A stretch of DNA of 64,000 nt from a virus (taxonomy: Duplodnaviria; Heunggongvirae; Uroviricota; Caudoviricetes): the IMG/VR virus record IMGVR_UViG_2565956719_000002; one strand, written 5' to 3'. The notes under the pieces were generated by a model. That model did not search any database and was not told where the DNA came from. It saw only the letters and a program-made list of their open reading frames with translations. A program made the position numbers and the translations under genes. Shown piece after piece: positions 31,420 to 32,987 of the stretch; the first letter of the stretch is position 1, and every line of letters starts with the position of its first letter.

Positions 31420-32150
31420 CCTCTCACTCCATTATTTAACGAATAAAAAAGCTGCGGTGCCGGGTGCCTCCCGGTGTCCTTTGGCTGGTTATCCACCGTG
31501 GACGGGGAAGCAAGGAGAAATAATGGACAGATATAACCATTTCCCCGCGTGCGCTTAGCCGCATTCACCGCAACGGAAAGAGCATTCTTGGTGGACCTGT
31601 AGATTGGGATATGAACCCGTTACAGGAGAATGCTCTTACCTGTTACGTGCTCCGTTTCGTGGAGCTAACGGCGGGTGATCGGGCCGCACCATGCTGGACT
31701 TATTTCAGCGTTATGCTCATGCCAGAGAATCAAACTGTGATGGTCGGTGCTGAACTCCGACACAGGGTTGTAGCAAGCCCCGCAAAGCGCGCACTACTGT
31801 AGTTGCGGCACATCAGCCTGTGCATTCACCACAATGTTGAGAACACTGGTTGTCACGCTGCCTCGCGACATTTATTCATAGATTGGGATATGACCCCGTT
31901 ACGCCAGTGTTCTCAACGTTGTAGTGCCGGTTACGGTTCCGGCCAGGCCTCTTCCTCAACGGGGTGTTCTCCATACGGACTACCGTTTATTGGTCGTTCC
32001 TGCGGTTTATGTTGTGAAGCCAGATGCTTATCTTCTGGTTGCTTCAAAGAGCTGCACTTCCTCACAACGGTAAGGGTACTTCGTAGGGATTCGAACCCTC
32101 TGCCAAGCTCGGCGATCTCCGACGTCGCAAAATACCCTTACCTGTTGTGC

Positions 32151-32226
32151 TGGTGCCGATTAACGGACTCGAACCGCTGACATCCTGCTTACAAGGCAGG
32201 CGCTCTACCAACTGAGCTAAACCGGC
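32151..32226 (-). tRNA. tRNA-Thr (UGU)
   Basis: 76-nt cloverleaf; anticodon loop CTTGTAA; GGTTCGAGTCC T-arm; CCA encoded. Confidence 0.85.
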
Positions 32227-32228
32227 AT

Positions 32229-32304
32229 TGGCGATGGTGGATGGATTTGAACCATCGACCCGTTGATTAACAGTCAACCGCTCTAACCGCTGAGCTACAC
32301 CATC
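32229..32304 (-). tRNA. tRNA-Asn (GUU)
   Basis: 76-nt cloverleaf; perfect acceptor stem GATGGTG/CACCATC; anticodon loop CTGTTAA; G73. Confidence 0.85.
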
Positions 32305-32959
32305 ACTTGCCGGGTACGTCTCCGGCGAGGGCTTCCACCTCCGTATGCTTTTCGGCGCACCGCGCCCTGGCTGCAATTCGGTAACAGGGGATGCACAACC
32401 CTGGCTTCCAGCGTGATTAGCGCCTTCAGCATGACGGGATATACCCGTTACAAGAAATTCTCCCAGGATGCCATTAAGCAATGGCTGTTACGCTGAATGA
32501 AAAAGGACGTAACAGGTAAGGGCACTGACCAAAAGATGGCCCCTTCTCGCTCATCTGGTTAATCGAACCAGCGCCCTTACCTTGTTATGCCTCCCCGTTC
32601 CCTAATACACAGACGGGGACACTCTGCGGTCGATTTTTTGACGGGGGACGACTCATACCCCGTGGCGTCTGGCTTCTTAGGCCGCTACCATCATCAGATC
32701 ATCGTTTGCATTTACTTTAATGGTCAGTTTCTAAACCGCCGCAAAGTCGCTAACCATGACGAAAACCCTGAAAAAAACGCCCACCCGAAGATGGGCAAAC
32801 TGGAAGCTCGTAACGCACTTCGGCGTTGCCACTTAGGCGCATGGTCAACCTGGCAACTCGGTGGTTTGTCTGGGAGGACTAGGCCCAGCCATGCTTACCG
32901 CCGCGCCTGTCGCGGCTAACAGCTAAATCGCTCTATAAATCACGATTCATTGAGACGAT

Positions 32960-32987
32960 ATTACACTAATAAATTTATTAGAGCAAT
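32960..32987. promoter_or_regulatory. bipartite palindromic C1 operator: ATTACACTAATAAATTT (plus) overlapping perfect ATTGCTCTAATAAATTT (minus)
   Basis: 17/17 consensus copy at 32971-32987 (minus) overlapping a 15/17 copy at 32960-32976 (plus). Confidence 0.6.

Follow-up and report, generated by a model that had tools for sequence, protein, structure and literature searches.

What is encoded in the roughly 1.5 kb around the tRNA-Thr/tRNA-Asn gene pair of P1-like phages? We addressed this question in IMG/VR record IMGVR_UViG_2565956719_000002, of which a stretch of 64,000 nt was analyzed (the window); the region of interest spans positions 31420-32960 (1541 bases). It shares 97% identity with phage P1 and ~91% with P7 and Ro157c2YLVW, and by this identity its source is a P1-like phage. 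The P1 counterpart sits between dmt and the tci genes plus ban, and the P1 annotation has transcription run from the C1-controlled promoter P1ban (operator Op72) towards ban, that is, along the minus strand of the window. Judged by this homology, the region is the untranslated, minus-strand leader of the C1-repressed ban operon. Within it lies an RNA of ~180 nt, here called the core, that is related to transfer-messenger RNA (tmRNA, SsrA). Taken jointly, the identity of the region, its relationship to tmRNA and a role in trans-translation make up a reading that we hold to be somewhat more probable than its opposite. An earlier note on this DNA had described tRNAs, repeats and a tRNA-like remnant, and its interpretation of the region is partly supported; the tmRNA-like RNA at 32768-32592 had gone unnoticed in it, as had the membership of its CCCTTACCTGTTA repeats in a widespread hairpin family.

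A core related to the template half of tmRNA

When the region was searched by sensitive BLAST against 50,697 phage records, window positions 32573-32767 aligned with unrelated phages at ~71% identity. These matches, in Serratia phage phiMAM1 and Erwinia phage phiEa2809 (Ackermannviridae) and in E. coli phage PD205 and Klebsiella phage Pylas (Schitoviridae), always fell in DNA without annotation, close to tRNA genes of the same orientation. The 5' domain of the core is nearly invariant across copies and leads into a conserved block, AAAUGCAAACGA, after which a reading frame opens (Table 1). The E. coli SsrA tag is ANDENYALAA; counterparts of the window's frame read ANDNEFKVAA in phiEa2809, ANDDVVLMAA in PD205 and Pylas, and ANDNAYLMVA in phiMAM1, each followed by a stop codon. 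Extraction kept just those cores with a frame of exactly ten residues, and the 139 loci that passed encode 15 different peptides, all of which start with AN(D/E) and end in (A/V)A, apart from one ...VAP variant. In these loci the last two alanine codons vary synonymously (GCA GCC, GCG GCG or GCT GCT). Because ten sense codons, tmRNA-like ends and synonymous alanine changes are kept across families, the pattern of conservation suggests that the tag frame is, or recently was, decoded.

The surroundings of the frame point the same way. At the resume and tag region, the window and six other phage homologues gave sub-threshold matches (23-34 bits) to the Rfam models tmRNA_permuted and beta_tmRNA. 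The betaproteobacterial consensus of beta_tmRNA, ...UAAAuGCcAAcGAUGA...GCCGCcUAA, has UAAAuGCcAAcGAUGA in common with the element, and for genuine permuted phage tmRNAs ARAGORN gives a resume consensus identical to that of the element, TAAATGCAAACGAT. Among bacterial tmRNAs, the element is especially close to the coding piece of the betaproteobacterial two-piece form, with which it shares the resume context UAAAU-GCA AAC GA. As in SsrA, there is a ten-codon frame of the proteolysis-tag type with an Ala-Ala or Val-Ala end and a stop, and H-type pseudoknots follow the tag. Unlike SsrA, the element has two, not three, pseudoknots after the tag, is much shorter (~180 nt), is phage-encoded and embedded in longer transcripts between long hairpins, and is without an acceptor stem, a T-arm at the right place or a CCA end, so that it would not be chargeable.

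The predicted pseudoknots were compared in 13 representatives from at least six phage families. Pseudoknot b consists of a hairpin of 5-6 bp whose loop pairs with 4 nt located ~8 nt downstream; loop and partner read GUCG/CGAC in the P1 type, CCGA/UCGG in a second type and CCAG/CUGG in KLPPOU148. Pseudoknot c is a 5-bp helix interleaved with a helix of 4-8 bp, the former occurring as GCAGA/UCUGU, AUGGA/UCCGU, GUGGU/ACCAU, GGAGU/ACUCU, GCACU/GGUGU, GCAGU/GCUGU and GCAUU/GAUGU. All four helices are fully complementary and in the same order in 13/13 representatives, a figure that is partly so by construction since the helices were chosen by eye for each sequence. Linkers are constant within 1-2 nt in nearly all 13, Vi01 and phiEa2809 having 2-4 extra nt in one linker, and nearly every paired position shows 2-5 pair types. 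When the partner strand was shifted by 1-3 nt, pairing went down to 12-59%. For pseudoknot c, nearly all positions have 2-4 pair types, and the same shift leaves 20-60% pairing. Hand-defined helices were checked by script with this slide control because in a MAFFT alignment the two types of 3' domain, among 15 cores, were wrongly offset by 1-2 nt; RNAalifold on six sequences found nested stems and not the pseudoknots, and a brute-force search for covarying columns was too noisy for use. The real evidence for the predicted pseudoknots is thus their conserved order, their spacing and geometry, and the compensatory changes. The nested folding energy of the whole core is not unusually low (z -0.85), which is expected because the RNA is pseudoknotted, and no equivalent of PK1 was resolved 5' of the tag in the core. 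An end-to-end helix put forward by RNAalifold was rejected, having no support from type II members.

In sequence and predicted fold, these comparisons show the element to be homologous to the template half of tmRNA. A remnant of the attP site of ssrA-integrating phages was considered as another origin and rejected: the element corresponds to the middle of tmRNA and not to its 3' end, differs from host ssrA, and is present in strictly lytic phages.

Distribution and expression context

A search with the 200-nt element retrieved 333 phage records. Its carriers include P1-like phages, Kuttervirus Vi01 and many other Ackermannviridae, N4-like phages, the Drexlerviridae phage SG01, Deseoctovirus C1, Jedunavirus KLPPOU148, a lambdoid Enterobacter phage and Aeromonas phage pIS4-A. 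The element is found in 670 of 5426 complete E. coli genomes (~12%); 582 of its locations are plasmid-borne, the plasmids being mostly of P1-like size, and 152 are chromosomal. In these genomes it either has no annotation or is labeled a hypothetical protein. In a set of one genome per species (185,579 species), the 3' domain occurs in just 2 contigs, and the element is therefore one of phages. In lambdoid prophages, the core, flanked by the same hairpin family as in P1, is located immediately after tR', in the late leader that goes untranslated between the genes for the Q antiterminator and the holin. Judged from sequence, promoters and operon-leader positions are consistent with expression in lytic growth.

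Published surveys report phage tmRNAs only from mycobacteriophages (full ones in cluster C) and Bacillus phage G, as well as an RNA of DS6A that consists of the tRNA-like domain (TLD) only (PMC4131195). P1 and other enterobacterial phages are not in the published phage-tmRNA lists (PMC4131195, PMC11915505), and a 2025 database paper rejects truncated tmRNA candidates (PMC11915505). The mycobacteriophage DS6A likewise carries half a tmRNA; it keeps the tRNA-like half, whereas the P1-type element is the opposite, template half. No description of a tmRNA-like element of this kind was found in the literature searched, and the core is apparently a widespread phage RNA related to tmRNA that has so far gone undescribed. 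It stands unannotated in Vi01-like, N4-like, T1-like and lambdoid phages and in the E. coli genomes counted above.

The tRNA-like domain

ARAGORN called no tmRNA in the window or in 10 homologous loci, and ARAGORN and Rfam detected no tRNA-like domain near any copy of the core. The complete 46.7-kb genome of phage C1, a carrier, gave no tRNA or tRNA-like match at all. Searches upstream and downstream, within the hairpins and through this whole phage genome, and one for a new circular permutation (in the order S1, T-arm, acceptor hairpin, S2), gave no arrangement of G3:U70 and CCA. The upstream acceptor piece of a permuted tmRNA is absent as well: at its place the window has a terminator hairpin only, and C1, KLPPOU148 and pIS4-A have a promoter only. 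That near-consensus promoter, TTGACA-17 nt-TAGATT or TAATTA, ends ~7 nt before (A)GAUAGUUUUCG; it abuts the core and therefore leaves no room for a 5' acceptor strand. By its predicted structure the core alone cannot be aminoacylated or enter a ribosome, and since there is no tRNA-like domain, decoding would need a partner.

Such a partner might be encoded by the phage, making a two-piece tmRNA in which an unrecognised acceptor piece (hairpins H-T or H-U of Table 1, their equivalents, or another tRNA-like RNA) gives the aminoacylated end after processing. T-arm-like hairpins (GGGUUCGAAUCCC, CAGGUUCGAUUCCUG, GAGAGUUCGACUCUC) do recur within the hairpins adjoining the core in P1, E. coli prophage E50, MII_001 and Pylas, odd tRNA-like genes lie ~120 nt upstream of the core in PD205 and phiMAM1, and genuine permuted tmRNAs exist in other viral contigs. 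However, no candidate partner has G3:U70 (the PD205 and phiMAM1 genes included) or a properly placed CCA end, and the hairpin interior is dispensable, being merely CUGG-UUAA-CCAG in pJN2-26. C1 moreover has the core in a genome without any tRNA-like sequence, and the promoters of C1, KLPPOU148 and pIS4-A exclude a 5' acceptor strand. We regard a phage-encoded partner as improbable.

The aberrant tRNA-like genes upstream of the core are a 72-nt pseudo-tRNA in PD205 (locus L006, 1796-1867) and a 92-nt "tRNA-Cys" in phiMAM1 (locus L007, 1815-1906). Complete permuted tmRNAs with the resume string aCTAAATGCAAACGATGA are called by ARAGORN in seven viral contigs (L028, L041, L045, L056, L090, L091 and L123), IMG/VR contigs that were also picked up by pattern search and are low in G+C (~38-39% in the two inspected). 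Their tags are ANDEVFALAA or ANDNVFALAA, and, to go by the shared resume string, they may represent the ancestral, complete form of the P1-type element.

The region might also be an ordinary tRNA-operon leader, whose hairpins are processing or anti-Rho structures and whose tmRNA-like stretch is a decaying, functionless relic of a captured tmRNA. Its mosaic make-up, with frequent indels and swapped hairpin interiors, would fit, as would a tRNA content that differs among relatives (Tyr in Ro157c2; Ser in P7 and D6) and the little covariation seen within P1-like phages. Yet frame length, both pseudoknots and their spacing are kept via many compensatory changes in families otherwise without shared DNA similarity, and a relic would not gain promoters of its own, all of which makes decay a very improbable account.

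Possible action on host trans-translation

Several phages have long been known to depend on tmRNA. From homology and context we infer a role of the tmRNA-like RNA in host trans-translation: it would act in trans during lytic growth, and would either dock on host tmRNA and substitute for its template or serve as a decoy. As a substitute template, its invariant 5' motif GCGAC-UUUGCGG would dock on the complementary nt 74-91 of host tmRNA, and the host's tag frame would in turn be replaced, or at least blocked, by that of the phage. In E. coli ssrA, the complementary nt 74-91 (GCCGCAAA..GUCGC) comprise the 3' PK1 strand and the bases surrounding the resume codon, and in Ackermannviridae the complementarity extends into ACGACGA. 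The predicted duplex with ssrA nt 73-92 reaches -17 to -22 kcal/mol in nine representatives with the motif matched, and the nt 74-91 duplex is the best local one in four of six divergent phages; whole-molecule duplex prediction with host ssrA is meaningless at that length. Carried to its end, docking would yield a tmRNA split between virus and host, in which the phage template RNA pairs with host nt 74-91 and borrows the alanylated tRNA-like domain and SmpB, and rescued ribosomes add a tag chosen by the phage, such as ANDDLMMVAA, in place of ANDENYALAA.

Several observations weigh against such roles, besides the choice of pseudoknot helices by eye. To our knowledge, every working tmRNA has a tRNA-like domain as its defining part, and the core has none. 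The matches to tmRNA models are far below the gathering scores, with 24.1 bits for the window and 22.9-33.7 for its homologues against 47 for tmRNA_permuted, and 14-21 against 84 for beta_tmRNA. In windowed prediction, the duplex with host ssrA is not more stable than that with shuffled phage RNA (z -1.1 to +0.3), and the complementarity to ssrA could merely be inherited from the PK1 of tmRNA itself. The 5' domain, docking motif included, is much reduced or degenerate in Klebsiella phage pJN2-26. Finally, the terminator-like hairpin upstream of the core would limit its expression in P1 unless read through. Docking as a specific step is doubtful even when considered alone, and the split tmRNA as a whole is unlikely.

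The main rival of docking is a pure decoy: an RNA that mimics the template and pseudoknot body of tmRNA, soaks up ribosomal protein S1, RNase R and possibly SmpB, and so dampens or retunes trans-translation, its tag remaining untranslated. In its favor, the searches for a tRNA-like domain all came up empty, strong promoters of its own precede the element in small lytic phages, and the TLD-only tmRNA of DS6A is a mirror-image precedent: a molecule similar to it strongly inhibits tmRNA, perhaps by SmpB titration (PMC4131195). A decoy leaves unexplained, however, why exactly ten sense codons and a stop, an AN(D/E) start, an (A/V)A end and synonymous alanine codon changes are found across families, and we consider it possible, with chances well short of even.

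Whichever way the RNA would act on host trans-translation, it is an entry point to how phages manipulate ribosome rescue and to whether the template function of tmRNA can work apart from its tRNA function. A split tmRNA, if true, would rewire the fate of truncated proteins in lytic growth and, given the hundreds of Enterobacterales phages concerned, would be a common way, not seen before, in which viruses take over ribosome rescue.

Hairpins around the core and the tRNAs

The leader would be read when the prophage is derepressed and would form a "stable-RNA island". From 5' to 3', this would comprise a structured leader with a terminator-like hairpin at its end, the ~180-nt tmRNA-derived RNA, a long hairpin, tRNA-Asn and tRNA-Thr, a hairpin with a tRNA-like minihelix, two paralogous hairpins, and an STnc100/PasD-like RNA with a terminator (Table 1). 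The two tRNAs reported earlier at 32151-32304 are called by both ARAGORN and Rfam, each on the minus strand.

Table 1. Features of the ban leader in the window, in order of minus-strand transcription
Feature	Position	Strand	Details
C1 repressor operator pair and P1ban promoter (Op72 of P1), minus-strand transcript start	32958-32989	.	16-nt inverted repeat; aligns with P1 features Obanab and P1ban
Structured 5' leader, two hairpins (P1's "dicF-like region")	32821-32915	-	Homologous to the ydfC-dicF spacer of the E. coli Qin prophage
Intrinsic-terminator-like hairpin just upstream of the core	32771-32800	-	GCCCAUCUUCGGGUGGGC + U7; terminator scan; conserved from P1 to D6
tmRNA-like core RNA, ~180 nt	32592-32768	-	5' domain GUUUUCG..GCGACUUUGCGG..UUUAGAAAC.GACCA, tag frame and two pseudoknots; ~71% identity in unrelated phage families
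Tag reading frame	32677-32709	-	GCA AAC GAT GAT CTG ATG ATG GTA GCG GCC TAA (ANDDLMMVAA, stop), after resume context GUAAAU (UAAAU-GCA)
Pseudoknot b	32629-32663	-	Hairpin ACGGGG/CCCCGU, loop GUCG pairs with downstream CGAC
Pseudoknot c	32592-32627	-	GCAGA...UCUGU interleaved with UCCCCG...CGGGGA, loop GUAUUAGGGAA
Hairpin H-U, directly after the core	32510-32587	-	Stem (A)ACA(A)GGUAAGGGCGCUG / CAGUGCCCUUACCUGUUA; -46.2 kcal/mol, z -5.1
Hairpin cluster with third GUAACGGGUAUAUCCC motif	32425-32497	-	Fold; inner hairpin kept in three versions: GCCAUU/AAUGGC, GUGCU/AGCAC, AAUUGCU/AGCAAUU
tRNA-Asn (GUU)	32229-32304	-	ARAGORN; Rfam 74.5 bits
tRNA-Thr (UGU)	32151-32226	-	ARAGORN; Rfam 72.9 bits
Hairpin H-T (tRNA-like remnant of the earlier note)	32063-32149	-	21-bp stem, one bulged A, encloses GGGUUCGAAUCCC hairpin; -47.3 kcal/mol, z -5.6
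Spacer, almost invariant among aligned P1-like phages	31927-32062	-	Alignment columns ~1075-1215
Hairpin H-B	31827-31926	-	23-bp stem around GUAACGGGGUCAUAUCCCAAUCUA, then GGUGAAUGC; -49.4 kcal/mol, z -5.6
Variable segment	31648-31826	-	tRNA-Ser(UGA) here in P7 and D6; deleted in SJ46
Hairpin H-A, paralogue of H-B	31568-31647	-	Stem GGUAAGAGCAUUCU/AGAAUGCUCUUUCC around GUAACGGGUUCAUAUCCCAAUCUA; -35.4 kcal/mol, z -5.4
STnc100/PasD-like structured RNA	31445-31572	-	Closed by UGCGGUG/CACCGCA, U-run at end; homologous to the dicF-dicB spacer of Qin; z -3.6

The repeats noted earlier around the tRNAs are arms of RNA hairpins, and nothing pointing to protein-binding DNA arrays, as had been suggested, turned up. 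Folded as minus-strand RNA, the four repeat-bearing segments form hairpins of -35 to -49 kcal/mol (z -5.1 to -5.6); plus-strand folds are 2-6 kcal/mol worse because G-U pairs become A-C mismatches. Arms with CCCTTACCTGTTA belong to three hairpins, H-U (32587-32510), H-T (32149-32063) and H-A (31647-31568). Of the four copies of C(C/T)CTTACCTGTTA claimed in both orientations, three have at most one mismatch (31633 plus, 32135 plus and 32510 minus; 0.13 expected by chance, three reached in 0/100 shuffles), and the fourth, at ~32575-32588, has a 1-nt insertion. The three supposed copies of GGGATATG(A)CCCGTTAC comprise two good ones and a shorter third; their starts lie a few bases from where they had been placed, and the literal consensus has 0 matches in the region even with 3 mismatches allowed, because the copies differ by indels. 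The two good copies lie within a 24-nt repeat, TAGATTGGGATATGA(A/C)CCCGTTAC, at 31600-31623 and 31879-31902 (96% identical), which contains GGGATATG...GTTAC, and the third GGGATATG...GTTAC copy, near 32437-32455, is shorter and one indel apart. An inverted repeat put at 14 bp is real and in fact 23 nt long, pairing 31827-31849 with 31904-31926 at 91% complementarity. Conservation in related elements, set beforehand as the test of the repeats, was found.

A tRNA-like element had also been proposed at ~32060-32150. It is present, with an acceptor-like helix and a T-arm, its "acceptor-like stem" being the outer part of the longer 21-bp helix of H-T (arms at 32069-32081 and 32130-32142). The inner 7 bp UAUUUUG/CGAAGUA, with two G-U pairs, and the T-arm AGGGUUCGAAUCCCU mimic the acceptor/T half of a tRNA; the T-arm AGGG-UUCGAAU-CCCU has a perfect T-loop and is stacked on the 7-bp helix with one extra A between. 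As a tRNA, H-T has no cloverleaf, just 28 nt lying where the D-arm and anticodon arm belong, and neither ARAGORN nor the Rfam tRNA model calls it; of the degenerate tRNAs that had been suspected, the helix and T-arm are what stands. The H-T interior is swapped for unrelated sequence in P7, Ro157c2, pJN2-26 and other P1-like contigs, the stem being kept with compensatory changes, which looks like cassette-type exchange within a conserved stem. At least four unrelated interiors occupy this site among P1-like phages, and one of them (TTCTCCCTTATGGGGCTTGGCTTAAATGCA) recurs in a lambdoid prophage of E. coli, within its late leader (L274, 2425-2486).

Among the matches listed, the stem CAACAGGTAAGAGCATT with its partner ...AGTGCTCTT(T/A)(C/T)CGTTGTGGTGAA... 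is present in more than 120 viral contigs, and the family has 103 distinct interiors in 133 copies, usually with no tmRNA-like core nearby. A long hairpin lies 3' of the core in most families examined (PD205, phiMAM1, phiEa2809, Vi01, C1, KLPPOU148, MII_001, pIS4-A and pJN2-26); two exceptions, Cronobacter phage SG01 and contig L132, have an open reading frame (ORF) at this place. Pairing of these post-core stems is kept while their sequence differs: ACAGGUAAGGGCGCUG / CAGCGUCCUUUCCUGU in P1, ACAGGUAAGAGCAUUUA / UAAAUGCUCUUACCUGU in PD205, ACUGAGAGGGUUAU / AUAAUCUUCUCAGU in phiMAM1, CCAAUGUUGAAAGCA / UGCUUUCAACCAUGGG in MII_001 and CUGUUUGGGAGG / CCGCCCAAACAG in Vi01. H-U shows a compensatory change between the window and P1. 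Within P1-like phages there are 0-2 compensatory pairs per hairpin, and because these sequences are too similar, the evidence of covariation was taken from other phage families. A boxA reading of the hairpin 3' strand UGCUCUUU was rejected as the conserved feature: the strand covaries with the one it pairs with, and Pylas, KLPPOU148 and MII_001 have unrelated sequences in its place. In the commonest stem version the 3' strand, (C)AGUGCUCUUUCCGUUGUGG, resembles boxA (UGCUCUUUAACAA) and boxC of rrn antitermination leaders (boxA also that of lambda), and this likeness may be coincidence because of the same covariation.

RNase III needs stems of ~20 bp, and RNase P measures the acceptor/T minihelix. 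The stems of H-T (21 bp), H-B (23 bp), H-U and H-A (~19 bp each) have the size of an RNase III processing stem, about two turns of near-perfect double-stranded RNA. Because stem size suits RNase III and the acceptor/T minihelix suits RNase P, we read the hairpins as probable processing punctuation of a polycistronic stable-RNA transcript: ~20-bp stems and tRNA ends would be the sites at which RNase III- and RNase P-type enzymes cut the long transcript into separate RNAs. Besides the anatomy, this reading draws on a parallel with rRNA operons and with the dicF locus of Qin. Phage tRNA clusters with co-transcribed stable RNAs, such as the tRNA region of T4, and rRNA processing stalks are comparable in bringing tRNAs and structured RNAs together and in flanking modules with ~20-bp stems; unlike these, the P1-type hairpin family has a conserved stem (CAACAGGUAAGAGCAUU...AGUGCUCUUUCCGUUGUGG) and a highly variable interior. 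The repeats are thereby explained as members of a very widespread phage hairpin family that would punctuate phage RNA islands.

Both ends of the island resemble the Qin dicBF operon

In the dicBF operon of the Qin prophage, the flanks of dicF are homologous to the P1 leader hairpins and to the STnc100-like 3' module. The 95-nt leader (32915-32821) has matches of 77-79% identity in 4415 of 5426 E. coli genomes, in the context ydfC / gap / dicB, and its hairpins differ from Qin by compensatory changes, e.g., GTTGCCA/TGGCAAC vs GTTGTCA/TGACAAC. DicF itself (Rfam RF00039) had no match in the window at E up to 10, and the "dicF-like region" of P1 is, on this homology, the flank upstream of dicF and not DicF. 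At the position of DicF in Qin, P1-like phages have the terminator hairpin, the tmRNA-like RNA, tRNAs and hairpin modules, and the homology between P1 and D6 starts exactly at the terminator-like hairpin. DicF is made by processing of a longer transcript; Qin and P1 would both have long polycistronic transcripts from which small RNAs are cut, the cutting in P1 being presumed by analogy. A further ~55 nt between the second leader hairpin and U7 (CGCCGAAGUGCGUUACGAGCUUCCAGUUUGCCCAUCUUCGGGUGGGCGUUUUUUU; 32771-32830, minus strand) lie at DicF's position in the homologous Qin locus and could be a short terminated small RNA of their own.

At the other end, Rfam STnc100 (RF02076) matches 31572-31453 with 37.9 bits (E 6.8e-06; gathering score 47) over model positions 31-147 of 206; the part covered is the 3' two-thirds, closing stem and last hairpin included. 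GGTGAATGCGGCT(A/G)AGCGCACGCGG is common to this module and Qin. The STnc100/PasD family of prophage small RNAs is known from lambdoid late regions near the Q gene (bioRxiv 10.64898/2026.05.13.724894); in contrast to known members, the P1 module scores below gathering and sits in the P1 operon leader. The additional small RNAs anticipated by the earlier note would include this module, among structured RNAs in a non-coding region that forms one transcription unit with the tRNAs according to the P1 annotation. In Vi01 (locus L148, ~634-783), an aberrant tRNA-like element of 150 nt upstream of the core is closed by UGCGGUG/CACCGCA, the same closing stem as in the P1 module, and has a perfect T-arm.

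The annotated ORFs upl and plp

P1 is among the most used phages in bacterial genetics, and this stretch of its genome still carries two doubtful ORFs along with the "dicF-like region" label. According to the P1 annotation, upl and plp are on the plus strand; in the window, they correspond to ORFs of 63 codons (31611-31802) and 125 codons (31803-32180), and both are annotated in P1 and RCS47. That the region codes for Upl and Plp proteins, as the P1 GenBank entry has it, rests on these ORFs, whose pattern of change is not that of genes. Across related loci, variable sites at codon positions 1/2/3 number 4/3/0 in upl and 23/17/24 in plp, without the third-position bias of the flanking genes (69/50/187 in dmt; 8/3/85 in a gene for an SPFH protein). 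Moreover, plp is intact in just 11 of 23 distinct variants and overlaps trnT on the opposite strand. The ORFs are also deleted or replaced in relatives: in SJ46, recombination between the copies of the 24-nt repeat has removed most of upl, and in P7 and D6 its place is taken by other sequence, including a tRNA-Ser. The GenBank ORFs upl and plp are probably spurious by these comparisons, and a coding function is highly improbable, in keeping with the earlier statement that no convincing ORF spans the region. The annotation of upl, plp and the "dicF-like region" is corrected accordingly.

Neighboring genes and other RNAs of the window

A tRNA with CAU anticodon (trnI of P1, labeled Met by ARAGORN) lies further downstream at 30347-30272. 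At 30375-31419 (minus strand), tciA-tciB-tciC of P1 are replaced by a hydrophobic, membrane-like ORF of 78 codons and a 275-aa Band 7/SPFH protein (Pfam PF01145, E 1e-30). Ro157c2YLVW has the same pair, and there the SPFH protein is labeled "putative serine protease". Between tRNA-Asn and tRNA-Thr, Ro157c2YLVW has an extra tRNA-Tyr; tRNA-Ser(UGA) is present in P7, D6 and pJN2-26, the last of which is without tRNA-Thr, and the GenBank record of D6 puts the tRNAs on the wrong strand.

At gathering score, Rfam found two copies of the C4 antisense RNA and the sok antitoxin RNA in the window, at 2617-2807, 52602-52808 and 48970-49144 (minus strand). One C4 copy is followed by an isrK-like RNA, and the other has its own a1/b1 targets. 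The C4 and sok RNAs are the immunity and addiction RNAs expected of a P1-like plasmid prophage.

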